64,000 bases of DNA, from positions 107,910 to 171,909 of the forward strand of contig JAKAID010000001.1 of NCBI GenBank assembly GCA_021814545.1, in the 5' to 3' direction. The stretch comes from a bacterium. Its GTDB lineage: Bacteria; Patescibacteriota; Minisyncoccia; UBA6257; GWB1-50-10. Each line of letters begins with the position of its first letter. Within the stretch, counting starts at the first letter, position 1. The notes beneath the pieces are model-generated. The model had not been told where the DNA came from. It saw nothing but the letters and a program-made list of their open reading frames with translations, and made no database searches. Positions 2,717-50,190 of this stretch are shown here, one piece after another. The translations under genes and the position numbers were made by a program.

Positions 2717-3445
2717 CTATCGCGCTGAAAATGACGCGGTGCGCACGATGCGGTCAAGGAGCCCGCGTACGCGATTCTCATCGAACTCATGCAGGCCGAA
2801 CGAGGCGGGATAATTTTCAAGATACGTCGAGTGGATGACGTATTCGAGCACCACGCACTGGCCGTTGTGTACAGTTGCGTAGGTGGTGGTGTCATAACGA
2901 TTCCCCGCGGCAGCACCGGAATCTTTTGAGATGCGATACGGCACGCCATTTATTGTTTCGTTCGAAATGCTCGAACGGTATTGGTCGGGCAGTTGGTATT
3001 CAAGGCACTGCGTGACCGCAGTGGGGTCATCACTCTCACCTACCGTCAATGTTGCATCAAGAAAATTGGACATCGGCTCGAATAATTTCGGCACGGTAAT
3101 AGAGAGGAGTTTCACGCCGCTTACGCCGTTCGAATCTCTGCGCCATTCGCTCGTATCCATCCATCCGAATTCCTCGAGTGGAAGATCGATGGGGCTTTTA
3201 ATGGAAAAATGAGCACGGTCTATGTCGAACTCGCTCCACTGCGACTGGTCCGCGTAGCTCGGCGGCGCAATAGCTGCGCAGCGGAACGGCGTGAGTATCC
3301 GCTCTTTTTCTGCGCCATACCTGACACCAAGGAAAAACCCGAGTAGTGGCAATACTACAAGCATACCGAGCGCAAGAAGTTTTGAGTACCATGTTACTCT
3401 GCTCCATGCTGGGTGTGCGTGGAGGAATTTACGGAGCTTATTCAT
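2717..3445 (-). CDS. hypothetical membrane-anchored protein (single N-terminal TM, extracytoplasmic domain)
   Basis: Hydrophobic segment LLALGMLVVLPLLGFFLGV. Sits downstream of and co-directional with the ABC permease. Start chosen at MNKLRKF (ATGAATAA overlap with the upstream stop); the longer 3481 start is also possible. Confidence 0.5.
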   Translation of the reverse strand: MNKLRKFLHAHPAWSRVTWYSKLLALGMLVVLPLLGFFLGVRYGAEKERILTPFRCAAIAPPSYADQSQWSEFDIDRAHFSIKSPIDLPLEEFGWMDTSEWRRDSNGVSGVKLLSITVPKLFEPMSNFLDATLTVGESDDPTAVTQCLEYQLPDQYRSSISNETINGVPYRISKDSGAAAGNRYDTTTYATVHNGQCVVLEYVIHSTYLENYPASFGLHEFDENRVRGLLDRIVRTASFSAR

Positions 3446-4643
3446 AGCGTAAGGCTTCTGCCGCATCCATTTTTGCCGCACGACGTGCGGGGAAAAATCC
3501 TGCGACCATGCCTGTGATGAATGTTATCACAAGAATAACCGCAAGTCCCAAAAAATCGAGCGCAGCGAACGAAAAAAGTCCGCCGATGCCAAGGCCTTCC
3601 GCTGTGAGTCCGATAAGATATGCAATGAAAATTCCTATTATCTCCCCTATTATGCCGCCGAAAAGTCCGATGATGCCTGCCTCGAAAAGGAAGAGCGCCA
3701 AAATACTTTCGCTCGAGGCGCCAACTGCTTTTAAGATGCCTATTTGTTTTGTGCGCTCAAGCACCGAGGTATACATGGTGTTCATTACGCCGACGGCACC
3801 CACGATGAGCGAAACGAGCGCCACCACGATGAGTACGAACTCGATGATGCCGAGCACACTCCCCACCAGGCGGTTCGCCTTCATCGAAGTAAACACGGCA
3901 AAATCCCTCACCACTTCCTGACGTTCAAGGCGTGCGCGTATCTGGCGTGCAATGACGTTGATGTTGTACTGCGGGTCTATTTTTACGATGGCAGAGATGA
4001 CGCCACGCCTGTCGGTCAGCAGGTGGAAGTTGTCGAGCGAGAGATAGGCAGAATTGTCGTCTTCTTGGCTGCCGATTCTATCGAGCACGCCCGACACGAT
4101 AATGCGCTTCGAGGAACCGAAGATTATCTCGTCCCCCGCGTGCACGCGTTTATTGAAAAGTTCCGTTGCTGAAAGATAGCCAAGCACTACTTTATTCTCT
4201 GCGTCGTTGTCCGGCCACGCGCCCTCGATAAGTTTTGCTCCCTGCATCTCCTCAAATACGGTGCGCATGCTCTTCCAGCGCACGCCGTGCACCATCATTG
4301 TTTCTTTCTGCCCATTGAACTCTACATTGAACATTGCAATGTCAACCGGCGAAGCGAGCCGGACTCCTGGAACAGTCTCGAGGTCCATAATGTCCCGCTC
4401 CCTGAACCTTTGGCCGCCGAAGAGTGCGTTCACGGGGTTCGTTTCCTTTCCTGGGAAGATGGCTATCATATCGGAGCCGAACATGCTCAATGCCTTGGAA
4501 ACCGCATTTTGGACGCCGGAGCCGAGCGCAAAAATGCACACGACGAGCATCACCGCGATGACAATGCCGAGTACGGTGAGCCAGCTCCTGAGGGGCCGGT
4601 AGCGGATGCCTTTCAACGTGAGTAGTATGAAATCTTCGAACAT
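3438..4643 (-). CDS. ABC transporter permease, FtsX/MacB-like (periplasmic MacB_PCD-type domain plus C-terminal 3-4 TM)
   Basis: N-terminal TM (LTVLGIVIAVMLVV), large extracytoplasmic domain, C-terminal FtsX-type TM bundle; co-operonic with ABC ATPase and HlyD adaptor. Confidence 0.85.
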   Translation of the reverse strand: MFEDFILLTLKGIRYRPLRSWLTVLGIVIAVMLVVCIFALGSGVQNAVSKALSMFGSDMIAIFPGKETNPVNALFGGQRFRERDIMDLETVPGVRLASPVDIAMFNVEFNGQKETMMVHGVRWKSMRTVFEEMQGAKLIEGAWPDNDAENKVVLGYLSATELFNKRVHAGDEIIFGSSKRIIVSGVLDRIGSQEDDNSAYLSLDNFHLLTDRRGVISAIVKIDPQYNINVIARQIRARLERQEVVRDFAVFTSMKANRLVGSVLGIIEFVLIVVALVSLIVGAVGVMNTMYTSVLERTKQIGILKAVGASSESILALFLFEAGIIGLFGGIIGEIIGIFIAYLIGLTAEGLGIGGLFSFAALDFLGLAVILVITFITGMVAGFFPARRAAKMDAAEALRYE

Positions 4644-28861: not shown

Positions 28862-28870
28862 ATGTATTTG

Positions 28871-28943
28871 TGGACCCGACCGGATTTGAACCGGTGACCT
28901 CCTCATTGCAAATGAGGCGCTCTACCAGCTAAGCTACGGGCCC
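28871..28943 (-). tRNA. tRNA-Cys(GCA)
   Basis: Manual cloverleaf: acceptor GGGCCCG/CGGGTCC (one G-U), anticodon stem CTCAT/ATGAG with loop TTGCAAT, T-arm ACCGG-TTCAAAT-CCGGT; no encoded CCA. Confidence 0.85.
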
Positions 28944-28955
28944 TTGTTCCGACGG

Positions 28956-29027
28956 TGGGCGTGGAAGGAATCGAACCTTCGACCTCTGTCTTATCAGGAC
29001 AGCGTTCTACCACTGAACTACACGCCC
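28956..29027 (-). tRNA. tRNA-Ile(GAU)
   Basis: Acceptor GGGCGTG/CACGCCC, anticodon stem CTGTC/GACAG with loop CTGATAA, T-loop TTCGATT; no encoded CCA. Confidence 0.85.
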
Positions 29028-42335: not shown

Positions 42336-42992
42336 TTAATTTTTCACACATGTTCCGCCCACATCACCGAACGGCAGCAGGACACCGGCAGCGGGCGCAC
42401 AATGAAATCCGTCAGTACATATCGGCGCGCCCAACATGTTTCCTCCGCAGCGCATCCCCTCGCCTACGACTGCGCGTGACTGCACGAGGTTGGCGCCCTG
42501 AATTTTCAAATATTTACTCACGCCTATCGAGGGCTGCACCGCCATCGGGTCTTTCGGCGCCCGGTCGGCGTAATTCACGATGATCTCTCCGTTCCTGAAC
42601 TCTATCGTTTGCGGCGCAACCCGATCGCCGAGCAAAATGGCATTCGTGCCCGAGTATCCGCTCGCCGTTCCCAGCGCTGCCGTTACGTAGAAAAACGTGC
42701 CGCTCCCTCCGCCTGTTTGCGTCATAATAAATGCCACGTCCTGCCTGCCGTCGCCATTGAAGTCACCCACTGCCTCATTTCCGAAAAACTGCGTTACGGT
42801 TTTTGAGGCCGAACCAGGCGCACTCTCCTCCTCCGCGGAGCCGTTCACAAGCGTTACGAGCTTGCCATCTATTTTGTAGGCGGCGTTCTTGTAATCCGTA
42901 ATGATTACTCTCGGCTTTGCCTTTGTGTTTACGAGTGCAAGAAGCGCAACGCAGACGACGAGTAACCCGATTATTATTGAGTATTTTTTCAT
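42336..42992 (-). CDS. hypothetical secreted protein with C-terminal Cys-rich module
   Basis: Signal peptide/TM (IIIGLLVVCVALLALV), Gly-rich beta region, and a C-terminal cysteine cluster (RCGGNMLGAPICTDGFHCAPAAG..GGTCV). Confidence 0.5.
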   Translation of the reverse strand: MKKYSIIIGLLVVCVALLALVNTKAKPRVIITDYKNAAYKIDGKLVTLVNGSAEEESAPGSASKTVTQFFGNEAVGDFNGDGRQDVAFIMTQTGGGSGTFFYVTAALGTASGYSGTNAILLGDRVAPQTIEFRNGEIIVNYADRAPKDPMAVQPSIGVSKYLKIQGANLVQSRAVVGEGMRCGGNMLGAPICTDGFHCAPAAGVLLPFGDVGGTCVKN

Positions 42993-43030
42993 GCGATTAG
43001 TGTTTATGCCTTATTCAGTATACCAAAAAA

Positions 43031-43279
43031 TCACGCCTTCCCGTGCTTTACCAGCTCGAGCTTCCTCTCCCTCTTCCAGCTCTTGATTTCCGCCTCCCGT
43101 TTTGATGCTTTTGAGCGGTTCTTGTGCTTTTCGGCGTAGAGAAGCTTCACAACCCTATGCGCACGGGTATATTTCGCGCCCTTCTTCGCGGCATGCTCTT
43201 CAAACCTGCGCGCCACATCGGTCGTGAGCCCTGTATAGATACTCCCGCCCTCGCATTCTATAAGATAGACGAAGTACAC
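43031..43279 (-). CDS. GIY-YIG nuclease-family small protein (UPF0213/YhbQ-like)
   Basis: MYFVYLIECEGGSIYTGLTTDVARRFEEH..R.WK GIY-YIG core. Confidence 0.8.
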   Translation of the reverse strand: MYFVYLIECEGGSIYTGLTTDVARRFEEHAAKKGAKYTRAHRVVKLLYAEKHKNRSKASKREAEIKSWKRERKLELVKHGKA

Positions 43280-43389
43280 TATTTAGATTTTAACAAAACC
43301 GGTTCGGCGACAGATTGAACTCACCTTGGGCCCGGCCGCCTCAATGGTTGTTATGCCTAGACAGTGAAAGGGATCGGTGATAAAATAGT

Positions 43390-44454
43390 ATGGTGAAAAC
43401 CTCACACAAGCTCCTGCTCCAAGACGCGCGAAATTTGATTGGAATCAAGTCCGAAAGCGTGGATCTTGTTGTTACGTCTCCGCCATACCCAATGATCCAA
43501 ATGTGGGATGCGGTTTTTTCAGAATTAAATCCAGCTATTGCCGCCGCGTTGAAAGAGGAAAATGGAAATTTGGCATTTGAGCTCATGCATAAGGAGCTCG
43601 ACAGCACATGGAGAGAAATTTTCCGTGTTTTAAAAGATGGCGGCATTGCCTGCATAAATATTGGAGATTCCACCCGAACAATCGGGGGGAAATTTCAATT
43701 GTTCCCAAACCATTCGCGCATTTCAAAATCTTGTTTTGAAATTGGCTTCCATTGTCTCCCTGAAATCTTATGGCGCAAACAGACAAACGCCCCTAATAAA
43801 TTCATGGGGTCGGGAATGCTGCCCGTAGGAGCCTACGTGACTTTGGAGCATGAGTATATTTTAGTTTTGCGCAAAAATGGAAAACGCTTGTTTAATACAG
43901 AAAATGAAAAGAATCTTCGGCAAGAAAGTGCCTTTTTTTGGGAGGAGAGGAATCAATGGTTCTCCGATGTATGGGCAGACGTCAAGGGAGTTTTTCAAAA
44001 GCAGCACCAAAATGAAACCGATCGAAGAAGTGCCGCGTATCCAATAGAAATACCCTATCGTTTAATAAATATGTTTTCTTTGAAAGGAGATGTGGTTCTC
44101 GACCCGTATCTTGGCACCGGCACAACAATGGCGGCAGCCGTAATCGCAGAAAGAAATAGCATCGGGCTTGAAATTGATAAAAAATTTGCGAATGTGATCG
44201 TCAATAAAATTAAGGATGTTCCGCAAAATTATAACGGAGCTGCCAAAAAGCGACTCGAGAAGCACTTAAAGTTCGTCCAGGAGAGACAGGAAGAGAAAGG
44301 AGTCTCCGTTTTCAAATACACGAATAAAAACTACAAGCTCCCGGTAATGACTCGGCAGGAAACCGAAATCTTTTTTAGAGAGCCCACGAAAGTCAATCAA
44401 AAAAAGGAGGCTAACACTTTTGAAGTTGAATACAAAGAGTTCCGGATTAAATAG
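43390..44454 (+). CDS. DNA methyltransferase, beta-class N4-cytosine/N6-adenine family (motif IV SPPY before motif I)
   Basis: DLVVTSPPYP (motif IV) near the N-terminus and VLDPYLGTGTTMAAA (motif I) near the C-terminus; ~38% GC versus ~57% flanks. Confidence 0.85.
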   Translation: MVKTSHKLLLQDARNLIGIKSESVDLVVTSPPYPMIQMWDAVFSELNPAIAAALKEENGNLAFELMHKELDSTWREIFRVLKDGGIACINIGDSTRTIGGKFQLFPNHSRISKSCFEIGFHCLPEILWRKQTNAPNKFMGSGMLPVGAYVTLEHEYILVLRKNGKRLFNTENEKNLRQESAFFWEERNQWFSDVWADVKGVFQKQHQNETDRRSAAYPIEIPYRLINMFSLKGDVVLDPYLGTGTTMAAAVIAERNSIGLEIDKKFANVIVNKIKDVPQNYNGAAKKRLEKHLKFVQERQEEKGVSVFKYTNKNYKLPVMTRQETEIFFREPTKVNQKKEANTFEVEYKEFRIK

Positions 44455-45042
44455 CTAAGAGTCAAACTCGATAACTATTCCATCCTTTTTCTTCTCGTAA
44501 TATACGATTCTGTAGTTAATGCTTTCAGGGAGCGCCGCCTTAGTCTTATAGGTTGTGGGCTTTATGCTGACCGGATCATTACCCACATATCCGTCTATCC
44601 CCCGCGATTCTTCTTCCGGAGTCGCGAGTCTGTAGTTTTCTCCAACGTCTTCTGCAATCCTTTTTATGATCGCCTCTTGGAATTTTAACCCCGCAAATGT
44701 TTTAACAATAACGAGATCGGTAACCCACTCTCTAATCATATCTTTGTTGATCTTCCCAATAGAGTCCTTCAATTTCTCAACCATATCGGAAATTTTTTCT
44801 ATTGCCCGTTCAATCCCATCGGGTTCTTTACCCTTGTACCACTTCTCCCAATTTTTGAGCCCCCCTCCCTTAAATTCTTTAATTAGCTCACTCAGCTGCC
44901 CAACAACCGATGGACGCGTACCTTGAGCATTCTGATTGGCCAAGTTCAGGATCTGCGTTGAATATTTCGGAAAAGAGGGGCTACCGCCCGACAAGAGCTG
45001 CGCAATTTCTTTGTTCGATATTTTGATTTTCTTTAAAGCCAT
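44455..45042 (-). CDS. candidate restriction endonuclease cognate to the adjacent methyltransferase (195 aa, family unassigned)
   Basis: Convergent and abutting tail-to-tail with the MTase (stop codons adjacent), same AT-rich composition, acidic/Lys-rich. No confidently recognised catalytic motif. Confidence 0.4.
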   Translation of the reverse strand: MALKKIKISNKEIAQLLSGGSPSFPKYSTQILNLANQNAQGTRPSVVGQLSELIKEFKGGGLKNWEKWYKGKEPDGIERAIEKISDMVEKLKDSIGKINKDMIREWVTDLVIVKTFAGLKFQEAIIKRIAEDVGENYRLATPEEESRGIDGYVGNDPVSIKPTTYKTKAALPESINYRIVYYEKKKDGIVIEFDS

Positions 45043-45158
45043 GGATTCGGGTCTGCGCCAATCGCTTTGCGTGTTTTCCCCTGGTTATATTTGTAGGTAA
45101 TTCTATCCCTGATATAACTTCCTGTAAAACAGTTTTTCTCGGGCCGGATTCTAACCGA

Positions 45159-45187
45159 TTGAAAAAAAGGCTGGGATGGGGTATAAT
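45159..45187 (+). promoter_or_regulatory. sigma70-like promoter for tRNA-Gln (TTGAAA-17-TATAAT)
   Basis: Near-consensus hexamers 10 nt upstream of the tRNA 5' end. Confidence 0.55.
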
Positions 45188-45197
45188 TGCTTTTAAT

Positions 45198-45268
45198 TGC
45201 GGGATCGTCTAATGGTAGGACGCCTGACTCTGAATCAGGTAATCTTGGTTCGAATCCAGGTCCCGCAG
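45198..45268 (+). tRNA. tRNA-Gln(CUG)
   Basis: Acceptor TGCGGGA/TCCCGCA, anticodon stem CCTGA/TCAGG with loop CTCTGAA, T-loop TTCGAAT, discriminator G; no encoded CCA. Confidence 0.85.
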
Positions 45269-45373
45269 CAAAAAACGGAAGCAACCGCCTCCCAGTTTCA
45301 CTCACTCCGCTTGACCATAGGACTGAGGACTCTGAATTCACTGCTTGGCGAAATTCACCCTCCCCAACTCAGA

Positions 45374-46150
45374 ATGAAACGAAAAGAATTAGTAAATCAA
45401 ACGGAAGGAGCGTATTTACGTAAGGATTATCTTGAGGCCTTTGTAATTCAAAGTGCATATATTGAGAGTATTTTAAGAGAATTTATAAGCAATAAATTCC
45501 ATCAGCATCTCTCTGATGGTCTTTGTCAGTCTTGTGAATTTATGAACGCAGTACGAAAAAAGGTTATTGGAATTTCATTGCACGGTCTGATTGAATTGCT
45601 ATACGAGGGTAAATATATCGACTCGGGACAGAAAGCAAAAATGCAAGTATACAAAAATAGACGAAATAATATTTTGCATGAATTGCTCAAACATATTTCT
45701 AATCCAACTTTTGAAAAAGAGCTTTCTGCCGCCTACGAAGCCGGTAAGGAAGTTTTAGATGATAAAAGGCTTAAATGGATCGAGGAATTAATTGACGCAA
45801 GAGAAGAACATAATATTCTTAATGGTAAAATTATTCAGGAATCGCTTACTGATTTCTCGATAATAAATAAATTTACCGCTATGGGATATAGTCTTATTCA
45901 AAAAGAAAATCCAGCGGATAATTTACACGAATATCACGTACTCGCAGTTAATGACTGGCTTCCACTCCTCCAAAAATATCTCAAAGAGGGATGGTTTGCA
46001 TATTTTTGGAATGAAACTAAATTAAAAATTGTATTTTCAAGTAAGATATTTGAAGTTGACCCCCATCGAGAAGAAACCTGGAAGTCGGCGATAGATTATG
46101 GCTTATCAAAGCAAATCCCTATAGAAATGCTTAAGTTTCCCATGAAATAG
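45374..46150 (+). CDS. hypothetical AT-rich protein with HEPN-like R-x4-H motif (candidate abortive-infection/RNase-type defense protein)
   Basis: ~31% GC. All-helical N-terminal ~110 aa ending in YKNRRNNILHELLKH (R-N-x3-H). Start trimmed to 45374 because the longer ORF runs through tRNA-Gln. Confidence 0.5.
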   Translation: MKRKELVNQTEGAYLRKDYLEAFVIQSAYIESILREFISNKFHQHLSDGLCQSCEFMNAVRKKVIGISLHGLIELLYEGKYIDSGQKAKMQVYKNRRNNILHELLKHISNPTFEKELSAAYEAGKEVLDDKRLKWIEELIDAREEHNILNGKIIQESLTDFSIINKFTAMGYSLIQKENPADNLHEYHVLAVNDWLPLLQKYLKEGWFAYFWNETKLKIVFSSKIFEVDPHREETWKSAIDYGLSKQIPIEMLKFPMK

Positions 46151-46173
46151 CCCGATATATTGCCCAAACAAAA

Positions 46174-46196
46174 ACACGCCATTATGGCGTGTTTTT
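46174..46196. terminator. bidirectional terminator (ACACGCC-ATTA-GGCGTGT plus T5, A5 upstream)
   Basis: Seen in sequence. Confidence 0.65.
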
Positions 46197-46214
46197 CGCT
46201 GCTTATGGAGCGCC

Positions 46215-47336
46215 TTACGCTAACTTCGACCTCATCACCTCCGCAACCGCGCCAAGCGAGACGAGGAAGATTATGGCGCAGGCGAGCCATCCGATTACCG
46301 GAATGAGGCCGAGCACGCCAAGAATGAGCGCGCTACCCAGGAGGTGGTACCACTTGAGGTCCAGGTGCCCTTTCTTGAAGACCGCCATAATAAACGACGA
46401 AGTAACGATAACCGAGACTGGGGCCGTGAGCGTGAGCAAGATGCAGTAGAGCGCAAGCATCACCATCCCAGGAATCCAGCCAATTATCGTCGACATAAGC
46501 ACGATTCCCGCGATAGGAGCAAGGATGAGCACCGCAAATCCAGCGACTAACCTGTTCCAGAAATGGGTGTGCACACCTGCGACTGCCGCGGTTACGTCAC
46601 GGCGGCGGAGGAACCACAAGAGATACGCTGCGGTAAGTACCGCGAGCAGTTTTACTACGAGCGCCACGCCCGCAAGCGCCGCAAACAACTTCGGGCGCAC
46701 TCCCTGCCTTAAGCTATCCACCTTCGTGAACACGGGCGCCGACGCGAGCTGCGCGCCCTCGCTTACAACCGCCTCCACTGGCGCTGAATATTCGACTGCA
46801 CCCTTTACGCGCGCGTTCGGACCGAATGAAACCTTCTCCGCGCGTTTGATTTTCACATTTCCGTTCACCGTTCCATCGATGCGCACGTCGCCGCCCACGA
46901 TGGTAAGGTTACCGCTTTCCGAACCTGAAAAGATAACTAATCCGCCAAAAAGGTAGGAGTCTTTCACCACGGTGGTTTCGGGCGTTACGGTAAGCTGGCC
47001 TCCTGCCGCGGCGATTTCACCGTTTACTTTTCCGCTAATCGTGATATTGCCGCCTGCCACGCGGACGTCTTCTGCAGACCCGCCGACAATATTCACCGTG
47101 CCGCCAACCGCCATAATATCCTTATCTACCTTCCCGGAGATAAGCACATTGCCGCCCGCCGCAATAACATCACCCGCTACGGGGTTCGGGACATTCACCG
47201 TCCCCCCTGCGAGGTACACGTTCTGCGCTATCGGCACCGCAGGAGTCGAAGCGTTATTCCCCGCTTCCACGTACGCGGCAAGTGCTACGACGGGCACGAA
47301 TGCCGCAACAACCCCCAACATTACTAACTTTTTCAT
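46215..47336 (-). CDS. membrane protein with N-terminal bactofilin-like (polymer-forming cytoskeletal-type) beta-helical repeats fused to a C-terminal polytopic membrane domain
   Basis: Signal/TM, then repeated G-G-x-V-x-I/V-x-G motifs (AGGTVNVPNPVAGDVIAAGGNVLISGKVDKDIMAVGGTVNIVGG...), then 4-5 TM helices. Start at MKKLVML with SD AAGGGT. Confidence 0.55.
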   Translation of the reverse strand: MKKLVMLGVVAAFVPVVALAAYVEAGNNASTPAVPIAQNVYLAGGTVNVPNPVAGDVIAAGGNVLISGKVDKDIMAVGGTVNIVGGSAEDVRVAGGNITISGKVNGEIAAAGGQLTVTPETTVVKDSYLFGGLVIFSGSESGNLTIVGGDVRIDGTVNGNVKIKRAEKVSFGPNARVKGAVEYSAPVEAVVSEGAQLASAPVFTKVDSLRQGVRPKLFAALAGVALVVKLLAVLTAAYLLWFLRRRDVTAAVAGVHTHFWNRLVAGFAVLILAPIAGIVLMSTIIGWIPGMVMLALYCILLTLTAPVSVIVTSSFIMAVFKKGHLDLKWYHLLGSALILGVLGLIPVIGWLACAIIFLVSLGAVAEVMRSKLA

Positions 47337-47366
47337 ACCCTTAGCATACCACACGCCGCGCACGCG

Positions 47367-48817: not shown

Positions 48818-49426
48818 TCAGATGTCCACCTCGACAAGGCGGTACACCGCGGCAGCCGTGTGGCTCATCCAGTCCGACTGGACCGGCGAATGCCCCATGA
48901 CCCACTTCGCGCCGTTCCACGCGAGGTAGCGCACGCACGGCGAGCCGTCCGCCATCCGGTAGAGCGTTCCCCAGAAGTAGATGAGCGGATAGCAGCCGTG
49001 CACCCGCTCTTTCCAGTTCTCCGGAATGAGCCCCTGGTTTCCGAGGAGGAAGTCGAGAACGTTCGCGTTCCAGGCGACGGTTCTTTTCATCTCCTCGAAG
49101 AGGCGGCTGCCGCTCACGAGACTTCCGCGGCGCTGCTCTTCCATCTGGAAGAGGCTTACCGCACGCGGGTCCCAAGCAAACACGCCTTCGCCGTCGTGCT
49201 TCATGAGCGTGAGGCCGCGCGGAACGAGAGGCCTTGCCCCGAGATCGATGACGGGGCCAGGCGCGCCGCGGAGCTTCTTGCGCACGACCTTCAGCAACAC
49301 CTCGAGCACCTGCGGATTGTCCGCAAGAATGTCGAGCTCTTCGGGGGTGAAGCCGACCGCCTCGGCAGCGAGGCACAGCTTGTGCGCTACGCCAAGCACG
49401 TAGAACTGCGAGCTTTTGCTTGCCAT
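48818..49426 (-). CDS. hypothetical protein, paralog A of a tandem pair, very high GC3
   Basis: Shares ..NANVLDFLLGNQ.(F/L)IPE...G..LCFWGTLY....VRYL.W.G..W.. with the downstream-encoded paralog B; no known domain recognised. Confidence 0.6.
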   Translation of the reverse strand: MASKSSQFYVLGVAHKLCLAAEAVGFTPEELDILADNPQVLEVLLKVVRKKLRGAPGPVIDLGARPLVPRGLTLMKHDGEGVFAWDPRAVSLFQMEEQRRGSLVSGSRLFEEMKRTVAWNANVLDFLLGNQGLIPENWKERVHGCYPLIYFWGTLYRMADGSPCVRYLAWNGAKWVMGHSPVQSDWMSHTAAAVYRLVEVDI

Positions 49427-49602: not shown

Positions 49603-50190
49603 CTACTTGTCGATGCTCATGATGCGGATGGCGGCATAGAACTCGCTCATCCACACCTCGTCGATGCACCGGTAGAAGGAATCCCACCGATTGCCGCTCC
49701 AGAAGAGGTAGCGCACCACGATGCGGTTGCTCGCCGTCTTGTAGAGCGTGCCCCAGAAGCAGAGGCCGAGCATCGCACCGCGCGGACCCGCCTTCAGCGA
49801 CTCCGGGATGAACCGCTGGTTTCCGAGAAGGAAGTCGAGAACGTTCGCGTTCAAGAGCACGTGCGTCCGCAGCTCCGCGAACACCTCGCGCCCCGTCACG
49901 GTGACGCCCCGCTCCTGCCCCTCCGTGAGAAGGGGCGCTATTGCGTCCTTCCCCCAGTGGAACATGCCGCCGGGCTCGTGCTTCACGACCGCGAGCTTGC
50001 CGGGGGCAGCCGGAGCCCTGGTGCAGTCCACGATGCGCCTCTTCTCCTCCTCGGGGTTGCCCTCGAGAGCGAACTTCACGCTCTCCCTGAGCTTCCTCGC
50101 GGCAGCCTCGGCCGTCTCGCCGACGTTCTTTCTGAACGCGCCGAGCGCCCTGTCGAGCGCAAGGTCCACTTCCTTCGCGACTTCACTCAT
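49603..50190 (-). CDS. hypothetical protein, paralog B of a tandem pair, very high GC3
   Basis: See paralog A; the shared C-terminal ~90 aa has conserved Trp/Tyr positions. Confidence 0.6.
   Translation of the reverse strand: MSEVAKEVDLALDRALGAFRKNVGETAEAAARKLRESVKFALEGNPEEEKRRIVDCTRAPAAPGKLAVVKHEPGGMFHWGKDAIAPLLTEGQERGVTVTGREVFAELRTHVLLNANVLDFLLGNQRFIPESLKAGPRGAMLGLCFWGTLYKTASNRIVVRYLFWSGNRWDSFYRCIDEVWMSEFYAAIRIMSIDK

Follow-up and report, generated by a model that had tools for sequence, protein, structure and literature searches.

HEPN ribonucleases are the active part of many defence and toxin systems, among them Cas13, Csm6, HepT, PrrC and RAZR. Two of these enzymes, PrrC and RloC, cut the anticodon loop of tRNA, and PrrC is physically linked to a restriction-modification (R-M) system. 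To our knowledge, few defence systems have been recognized in the Candidate Phyla Radiation (CPR, Patescibacteria). Here we analyse an open reading frame (ORF) of such a bacterium (GTDB lineage Patescibacteriota; Minisyncoccia; UBA6257; GWB1-50-10). It lies at 45374 to 46150 on the + strand of a 64,000-nt stretch of DNA (assembly GCA_021814545.1, contig JAKAID010000001.1, positions 107,910 to 171,909), which as a whole is called the window below and to which all coordinates refer unless another locus is named. The ORF encodes 258 aa plus stop, with a HEPN-like N-terminal domain and an uncharacterized C-terminal domain. We read the product as a conditionally active HEPN endoribonuclease that is gated or targeted by its C-terminal module, expressed by read-through from a tRNA-Gln gene and carried in an islet with an R-M pair, and we give this composite reading a probability of roughly 0.55.

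According to this reading, the gene would have been acquired horizontally by a CPR genome and would encode a two-domain accessory protein. Its N-terminal 147 aa would fold as a four-helix bundle of the DUF4145-like HEPN kind, in which E31, R97, N98 and H102 would form a predicted metal-independent endoribonuclease site that, like those of other HEPN enzymes, is probably completed across a homodimer. The C-terminal module, acting as sensor, cis-inhibitor or RNA-binding module, would most likely gate the RNase or direct it to its target. Transcription would run on from the tRNA-Gln promoter and end at a hairpin (46170 to 46196). The protein itself would most likely be a toxin or abortive-infection effector that cleaves RNA once it is activated, and its gene would share a small variable islet with an R-M pair of the MjaI type. 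The analysis shows the ORF, its two domains, the conserved motifs, the helix topology of a confident model, the alien codon usage and the nearby tRNA; RNase activity, dimerization, regulation by the C domain, co-transcription and the defence or toxin role are all parts of this reading that we infer.

HEPN domains are up-down bundles of four helices, built from two alpha-hairpins, and the RNases among them act without metal and leave 2′,3′-cyclic phosphate ends. Two signatures have been described for HEPN domains (Anantharaman et al. 2013, PMC3710099): an R-x4-6-H motif at the end of helix 3, usually with N, D or H after the arginine, and a second acidic residue in helix 2, typically within E-x3-[KR]. 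The insert between helices 2 and 3 is variable and often helical (PMC3710099). The group closest to the protein studied here is that of the DUF4145-like HEPN domains (PF13643, clan CL0291), which gave the most frequent and the best profile match of the N-domain family described below and which share with it the R-N-x3-H motif, the upstream acidic signature, adjacency to R-M genes and fusions to sigma domains. DUF4145 HEPN domains have been reported in operons with R-M systems and fused to sigma-type helix-turn-helix domains (PMC3710099). The DUF4145 domain of RAZR is an experimentally validated RNase domain whose R and H are required for defence; RAZR itself is a single-gene defence RNase without antitoxin and consists of an N-terminal Cys4 zinc ribbon and a C-terminal DUF4145 HEPN domain (PMC13017515). 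Unlike RAZR (PD-T7-4), the protein of the window carries its HEPN domain at the N-terminus and has no zinc ribbon, its only two cysteines (C51 and C54) lying in the variable insert. It also differs from its DUF4145 relatives in that it is not fused to a restriction endonuclease (REase) or helicase, that its C domain is undescribed and that the hosts are of the CPR type, with the gene often linked to a tRNA.

Next closest are the small single-domain HEPN RNases of the HepT/MNT-HEPN type VII systems (PF01934, PF05168; structures 1wwp, 2q00, 5yep, 6m6u and 7ae8). They are the top structural neighbours of our N-domain model, at non-significant E values, and six family members gave weak HepT-like Pfam matches. 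No MNT nucleotidyltransferase gene adjoins the HEPN gene in the window or in the homolog loci examined for gene content, and the HxY extension of the HepT motif is missing here (RNNILHELL). Proteins of the CARF-HEPN and SAVED-HEPN kind (Csm6/Csx1, Cas13-type HEPN) resemble the present one in concept, as an HEPN RNase and a separate sensor in one chain. Here the order is reversed, with HEPN at the N-terminus, the C domain has no CARF/SAVED, Pfam, PADLOC or PDB relative, and there are no CRISPR or cyclase genes nearby. PrrC and RloC, for which R/H mutagenesis is cited in PMC3710099, come to mind since the ORF has an R-M pair and a tRNA gene as neighbours; the link here is one of gene adjacency and not of a shown substrate. 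Moreover, the 258-aa protein has no ABC-ATPase or P-loop domain, and the R-M system is of the type II MjaI kind rather than type Ic. Because the features that define these systems (zinc ribbon, MNT partner, CARF/SAVED, ABC ATPase) are absent, we file the protein under the HEPN superfamily only. What is new here is the HEPN family, its partner domain and the unusual tRNA-proximal placement; the enzyme class itself is well known.

Apart from the protein itself, a word-indexed search of 5.8 billion proteins yielded a single homolog (P0002; 256 aa, 47% identity), which is co-linear with it from end to end. When 1.84 billion cluster representatives were searched exhaustively with a hidden Markov model (HMM), 324 proteins reached E≤1×10−3, and these form two separate sets. 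Proteins matching residues 1–147 (N set; 55 of the top 150 HMM hits) are mostly stand-alone proteins of 150–190 aa, and those matching residues 148–258 (C set; 87 of the top 150) are mostly stand-alone proteins of 105–125 aa. Both halves occur together only in P0002 (519 bits), the next-best HMM hit scoring 112 bits. The whole 258-aa protein found nothing useful in Pfam, NCBIfam, PADLOC, PHROGs or PDB sequences, and a direct search with each half gave no relative in Pfam, NCBIfam, PADLOC or PDB sequences. Profiles of the N and C domains found no relative among PDB sequences either, some matches being to the DnaA or sigma parts of fusion proteins only. These comparisons indicate that the protein is a rare fusion of two unannotated domain families. 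A previous interpretation of the locus, made from the letters alone (the sequence-only reading), had called it an orphan with a helical N-terminal part of about 110 aa and a C-terminal part of about 150 aa. As regards full-length homologs this is nearly right, P0002 being the only one, but each half has more than 100 relatives, and the HMM hit boundaries yield an N domain of about 147 aa (45374 to 45814, +) and a discrete C domain of about 111 aa (aa 148–258; 45815 to 46147, +), the latter representing an unannotated alpha/beta domain family.

The N-terminal domain (aa 1–147) is a predicted helical bundle of the HEPN superfamily, DUF4145-like by its structure model, alignments and HMM hits. 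Both published HEPN motifs are present in its family, as E31-x3-R35 and R97-N98-x3-H102. E31 and R97 do not vary in either of two family alignments, of 37 and of 57 members; Y93 is invariant among the 37 and at least 90% conserved among the 57, and L20, A22, F23, Q26, N98, H102, L104 and G124 are at least 90% conserved. A single exception to R-N-x3-H conservation was seen among the members (P0033). In the window protein the predicted catalytic motif reads R97-N98-N99-I100-L101-H102 (45662 to 45679, +) and lies near the end of a helix, and the helix 2 motif reads E31-S-I-L-R35 (45464 to 45478, +), at a site with the family consensus IESLLK. The sequence-only reading had recognized the HEPN signature from the first of these motifs, as part of a helical region ending in YKNRRNNILHELLKH. 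This sequence is indeed found in the protein, and the residues it numbered R96 and H101 are R97 and H102. It had also named two points beforehand on which its proposal should stand or fall, a HEPN-fold prediction and the conservation of R and H among homologs, and neither check went against the HEPN reading. The R and H positions are conserved, and the second signature, with its invariant glutamate, joins them.

An AlphaFold2 (AF2) model of residues 1–147, built on the 37-sequence alignment, was confident (predicted local distance difference test score, pLDDT, 91.9; predicted template modelling score, pTM, 0.86). Its helices span residues 3–15 (H1), 19–46 (H2, carrying E31), 55–65 and 69–78 (insert), 84–107 (H3, with the motif), 111–128 (H4) and 131–146 (extra). 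In member-by-member scans, 21 of the 57 members matched Pfam DUF4145 (best E=5×10−6, in one unnamed member). Other weak matches within the Pfam HEPN clan were to HepT-like (6/57), HEPN_RiboL-PSP (5/57) and, once, Swt1-HEPN, and the clan alignments span the RNxxxH region. PADLOC contributed 16 weak member-hits (8+6+2) to CARF_HEPN models and one to RTasHEPN. No unrelated family recurred in these scans, except for the DNA-binding domains of fusion proteins. The gathering threshold of DUF4145 is 23.1 bits; the window protein gave no hit and ten individually inspected members scored 15.5–19 bits. Since the window protein lies below all family thresholds, we describe it as a new DUF4145-like family: it is best described as an apparent sister or divergent group of DUF4145, and we do not call it a member. 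The HEPN membership of the family as a whole is well supported by motifs and profiles, with a fold that is compatible and is not proof. We consider it highly probable that the N domain belongs to the HEPN family, and likely, with somewhat less assurance, that it is catalytically competent as a predicted RNase.

The composition of the gene and the state of its relatives bear on the question of whether it is accessory. The ATG at 45374 aligns with Met1 of nearly all homologs (Met1 is at least 90% conserved in the 57-sequence alignment). We take it as the true start because homologs begin at the aligned Met and N-terminally extended gene calls represent translated upstream DNA. The mechanical ORF list runs the frame upstream to 45197, through the tRNA-Gln gene. 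The public gene call (P0001; 312 aa, 45197 to 46150) likewise begins inside the tRNA and reads through, an artefact shared by P0014 and P0035, whose N-terminal extensions are translated tRNA. The GC content of the ORF, 33.8%, is the minimum over all 777-nt stretches of the window, which averages 54%; the sequence-only reading had rightly singled out the gene as the most AT-rich, at a value (about 31%) that was somewhat too low. GC at third codon positions (GC3) is 0.29, vs 0.63–0.86 in native neighbours, and overall GC is 0.338 vs 0.488 expected for the same protein in host codons. The codon usage of the gene is alien. In 28 of 29 homolog loci the gene is poorer in GC than its flanks, by as much as 28 points. 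Members of the N-domain family come from Patescibacteria (Kaiserbacteria, Saccharibacteria, Moranbacteria and Parcubacteria), with one metagenome-assembled genome labelled Gammaproteobacteria.

In a set of about 25 distinct loci, the gene has been disrupted independently at least four times, and each of these events puts RNxxxH out of frame with the start codon. Losses of 1 nt in A-runs occur in L011/L024/L025 (~3255–3310), L012 (~4282–4310) and L013 (~4282–4333), and split ORFs in L029 and L030. The A-run losses (A8 or A5–6) lie just upstream of the KRNxxxH codons, and the same shift was present in three assemblies with 51–70x coverage. These frameshifts could reflect pseudogenization, phase variation or transcriptional slippage. 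The locus of the only full-length homolog (P0002; L006, 5–8200) contains genes for a RhuM/Fic protein (PDC-S23, E=5×10−53), a SIR2-like protein of 300 aa (E=2×10−5), a MazG-like protein, an Nhi/AbiO-like SLFN-type helicase (E=1×10−15), an HNH protein and a nucleoside deoxyribosyltransferase, and no tRNA; by its gene content it is a candidate dense defence island. Low GC, disruptions and the setting of P0002 fit an accessory and potentially costly gene of the defence or toxin type, not a core gene. The suggestion of the sequence-only reading that the gene is defence-island cargo is plausible in the light of the alien codons, the adjacent R-M pair and the position of P0002 among SIR2-like, Nhi/AbiO-like and PDC-S23 genes. 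For a defence or toxin role of the HEPN gene as such, we regard the chances as about even.

Several observations weigh against our interpretation. The window protein itself matched no HEPN model in Pfam, NCBIfam, PADLOC or PHROGs, its sole PADLOC match being the uncharacterized PDC-M04B (E=0.018). Shuffled versions of the 258-aa protein contained R-x4-H in 27% and R-[NDH]-x3-H in 3.7% of cases, and the R-N-x3-H motif by itself is weak evidence for HEPN; it becomes meaningful because R97 is invariant and N98 and H102 are conserved across the 57 family members. The fold check by AF2 and Foldseek was divided: the model is confident and shows the HEPN helix order, but the Foldseek matches are without statistical significance. 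The top-probability matches in the PDB were the HEPN structures 1wwp (probability 0.85, TM 0.46/0.54) and 2q00 (0.72), and the HepT toxins 5yep, 6m6u and 7ae8 were also among them, yet the best E was 0.55 and designed helical bundles scored alike. Judged from the model, the fold alone is non-specific for HEPN. The C domain of the window protein departs from its family at two near-invariant positions, with AYFW for AHFW and MLKF for QLDF. No antitoxin-like partner is conserved beside stand-alone N-domain genes in the loci examined, and a constitutively toxic RNase is therefore unlikely.

Further points in this group concern mobility. Searches of IMG/VR viral contigs, INPHARED phages and PLSDB plasmids gave no relatives, there is no integrase ORF between 40 and 50 kb of the window, and no repeat of the tRNA 3′ end is present within 42900–46600. 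With no phage or plasmid relatives, integrase or att repeat, mobility is thus deduced from composition only. The two marks of a tRNA-integrated genomic island, an integrase and a distal repeat of the tRNA 3′ end, are absent. A search for an att-type repeat or island edge gave one candidate, a 20-nt match (80%) of the anticodon arm at 45318–45337, which we judged to be due to chance and which has no counterpart in L003 or L001. Finally, L003 has the same gene order as the window (fmt ... tRNA-Gln(CUG), HEPN gene), with identities of 47% for fmt and 41% for the HEPN domain. Such synteny with similar divergence is compatible with long vertical residence. The HEPN genes of both loci nevertheless keep about 30% GC in genomes of 54–57% GC, for which there are two explanations: the genes may have been replaced repeatedly at a hot spot, or they may have resided there for long without ameliorating.

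As the sequence-only reading had it, the gene directly follows a tRNA-Gln gene (anticodon CUG; 45198 to 45269, +; ARAGORN; Rfam tRNA, 64 bits), at a distance of 104 nt. Upstream of the ORF, the + strand has a single good promoter match, which precedes this tRNA (45159 to 45187; sigma-70-like, TTGAAA-17-TATAAT, 11/12) and is a consensus match only. The spacer (45270 to 45373, +; fold z = −1.6) matches nothing in Rfam and shows no significant structure. Nothing in it resembles a promoter or terminator on the + strand, and the ATG is not preceded by a purine run of the Shine-Dalgarno type. Past the stop codon by 20 nt lies a perfect 13-bp inverted repeat, AAAAACACGCCAT / ATGGCGTGTTTTT (46170 to 46196), a hairpin with a T-run, which is likely to be a bidirectional intrinsic terminator common to the convergent gene at 46215 to 47363 (−). 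Co-transcription of the ORF with tRNA-Gln is the simplest reading of this layout as it appears in the sequence.

Unexpectedly, this arrangement recurs: of 26 distinct loci, 7 have an N-domain gene that starts 0–210 nt behind a tRNA of the same orientation. The tRNA directly before the gene is tRNA-Gln in the window, L003, L010, L013 and L014, tRNA-Glu in L008 and tRNA-Leu in L012. A tRNA within 250 nt at this frequency has p~1×10−10 in a naive binomial with about 45 tRNA genes per Mb that ignores shared ancestry. A tRNA-Gln lies within 1 kb in seven loci, for which the same binomial, again ignoring kinship, gives a p far below 1×10−10 (~1.5×10−18 at a count of 8). The association spans Saccharibacteria, Parcubacteria, Kaiserbacteria and Moranbacteria. 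The layout of the window is repeated in L012, where a promoter-like site precedes the tRNA and no signal precedes the gene itself. In L003 and L008, no + strand promoter- or terminator-like site was found from tRNA to gene, and none was detected upstream of the tRNAs either. In L013 (3928–4003), tRNA-Gln(CUG) and the HEPN-family gene overlap, the 3′ CCA end of the one sharing nucleotides with the ATG of the other (…GCAGCCATGAGA…), and tRNA 3′ processing would therefore release a near-leaderless mRNA. Our literature searches turned up no publication that deals with HEPN in Patescibacteria or with a linkage between HEPN and tRNA-Gln.

The findings on tRNA placement, together with the synteny of the window and L003 at comparable divergence of fmt and HEPN, speak for an enzyme that is no toxin at all, namely a housekeeping or quality-control RNase linked to tRNA that would, for instance, process, monitor or turn over tRNA-Gln/Glu or the tRNA-mRNA precursor. 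We nevertheless regard this explanation as unlikely. The family is patchy and rare, with a few hundred representatives among 1.84 billion, and 17 of the 26 loci have no tRNA within 1 kb upstream (19 of 26 have none within 250 nt). The codons are strongly alien, frameshifts are frequent, and P0002, the one full-length homolog, belongs to a candidate defence island that has no tRNA. What lies between tRNA-Gln and the HEPN gene is also variable: a PGDYG protein and a second RNxxxH protein in L009, an uncharacterized gene in L015 and a GIY-YIG gene in L018. Together with a RelE-like pair in L018, this cargo suggests an insertion hot spot instead.

tRNA-Gln has a GIY-YIG gene beside it in the window, L009 and L018, and dnaX as an upstream neighbour in L009 and L015; because these genes recur beside it, tRNA-Gln belongs to a conserved native neighbourhood. 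The small GIY-YIG protein of the window (43031 to 43279, −) has native GC, and its homologs adjoin tRNA-Gln in L009 (2140–2400) and L018 (2635–2955), which are distant CPR genomes; this gene marks the ancestral surroundings of the tRNA. The second RNxxxH protein of L009 is encoded by an unrelated 189-aa ORF with R-N-x3-H (EYRNRLTHNSH) and no Pfam match, directly upstream of the HEPN-family gene (3376–3945, +); from its motif, it may be another HEPN-like protein in tandem. The pair of genes in L018, for 76 and 81 aa, lies directly downstream of the HEPN-family gene (3727–4205, +), and the second product is RelE/ParE-like by eye. By its appearance, the pair adds to the impression of a toxin or defence islet behind tRNA-Gln.

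The C domain is the second part of the argument. Its family has the consensus GxIIEESL...WH...WYAHFW...VVF...TW..A..YG...GIP.EQLDF; if the family is enzymatic, the window copy, with its two substitutions, may be a binding-only version. Elsewhere the domain forms a stand-alone protein of about 110 aa or the C-terminal part of GNAT, NUDIX, ASCH/DUF3850, GrpB, PemK/MazF, glyoxalase and SnoaL-like proteins, and it also ends membrane-anchored coiled-coil proteins. In L032 and L033, a stand-alone C-domain gene starts 6 nt after a P-loop kinase-like gene (AAA_18, with weak zeta-toxin similarity), and in L035 one starts 5 nt after an unknown 130-aa gene. Because of these fusions and this gene order, we see the C domain as a portable module placed behind a variable enzyme. 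As the sequence-only reading proposed, it may serve as a sensor or partner domain. A member-by-member Pfam scan of the C family gave no recurring match, and its profile found nothing among PDB sequences. The full-length AF2 model, built on an alignment of two sequences, was unusable overall (pLDDT 44). Its C part shows a beta-alpha-beta-beta-alpha-beta order (pLDDT 58–78), and the weak Foldseek neighbours of this part are ferredoxin/RRM-like, at noise level, so that the model gives a hint of such a resemblance. Our confidence in any specific role of the C domain is low.

The partners of the C domain raise the possibility of a fused toxin-antitoxin system, in which the C domain would be a general neutralizer, acting in cis or in trans, and the HEPN toxin would stay inactive until the C domain is degraded or displaced. 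This possibility overlaps with our preferred reading. Several partners have toxin folds, including PemK/MazF (P0067), HEPN and GNAT (P0023, P0072, P0085), and to these may be added the kinases with zeta-toxin similarity encoded just upstream of C genes. The C domain is always C-terminal to its partner or encoded downstream of it, and stand-alone N-domain genes have no other candidate antitoxin. Antitoxins, however, are normally specific to one toxin fold, and the neutralization of unrelated enzymes would be unusual. The partners also include NUDIX, GrpB, ASCH, glyoxalase, SnoaL-like and coiled-coil proteins, and the neighbours are often small-molecule-modifying enzymes. This range fits a ligand-binding or regulatory module better, and we consider a fused toxin-antitoxin system improbable.

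A stronger version of our own reading would make the tRNA adjacency itself functional. In that case the toxin mRNA would arise only by read-through and processing of the tRNA-Gln, tRNA-Glu or tRNA-Leu precursor, so that the output of the HEPN RNase would be coupled to tRNA transcription and processing, or the enzyme would act on that tRNA. The C module would then be an unrecognized sensor or regulatory domain of many CPR toxin-type enzymes (MazF, GNAT, zeta-like kinase and HEPN). We think it rather unlikely that this version holds in full.

A different objection is directed at the N domain. Ten of the 57 members of its family are fused to sigma70 region 4 and the DnaA C-terminal DNA-binding domain (sigma70_r4 + DnaA_C), as might suit a non-catalytic HEPN-like bundle with a binding or regulatory function, e.g. 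an accessory domain of a transcription factor that does not cleave RNA, and the non-significant structural matches would allow it. Many HEPN domains attached to nucleotidyltransferases are non-catalytic; such domains typically lose R-x4-6-H (PMC3710099). In the present family, E31 and R97 never vary and N98 and H102 hardly do, P0033 being the only deviating member seen, and this makes a non-catalytic domain quite improbable. That the ORF is spurious or the motif a chance product of an AT-rich spacer, as the frequency of R-x4-H in shuffles and the missing Shine-Dalgarno-like sequence could suggest, has a negligible probability, being refuted by a full-length homolog of 47% identity with conserved ends, hundreds of domain homologs and a confident fold.

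Our preferred reading, a conditionally active HEPN RNase in an islet with an R-M pair, also involves the neighbouring genes. The sequence-only reading had correctly noted the R-M pair upstream. It consists of a type II N4/N6 DNA methyltransferase (N6_N4 MTase; 43390 to 44454, +; GC 42%) and an MjaI-family REase (44455 to 45042, −; GC 43%), whose promoter region diverges from the tRNA promoter. The pair sits between the GIY-YIG gene and tRNA-Gln. CTAG is the site recognized by MjaI-type enzymes. In the window (1–64000), this tetranucleotide was observed twice (2219 and 43357) vs about 52 occurrences expected from trinucleotide counts, and the copy at 43357 precedes the start codon of the MTase gene by 33 nt. 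GATC, too, is rarer than expected (55 vs 214). The scarcity of CTAG and GATC suggests long exposure to CTAG- and GATC-specific restriction.

Two further features of the window were recorded in passing. Tandem paralogous ORFs of 202 and 195 aa (48818 to 49426, −, and 49603 to 50190, −) share the motifs NANVLDFLLGNQ.(L/F)IPE, (Y/C)FWGTLY and VRYL.W.G..W. Adjacent genes for tRNA-Ala(UGC) and tRNA-Ile(GAU) lie at 28870 to 29027 (−), the usual arrangement of an rRNA-operon spacer.

Taken as a whole, the locus adds an unannotated HEPN family that is apparently confined to CPR/Patescibacteria. To a specialist the HEPN assignment will be unsurprising; the notable parts are the tRNA linkage and the promiscuous C module. 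Current concepts are unchanged unless one of these two proves functional. The recurrent position right behind tRNA genes, without integrases, is unusual and offers a testable case of a potentially toxic gene whose expression would be coupled to a tRNA. Defining the C domain, in turn, could explain the control of a whole set of CPR toxin-like enzymes.

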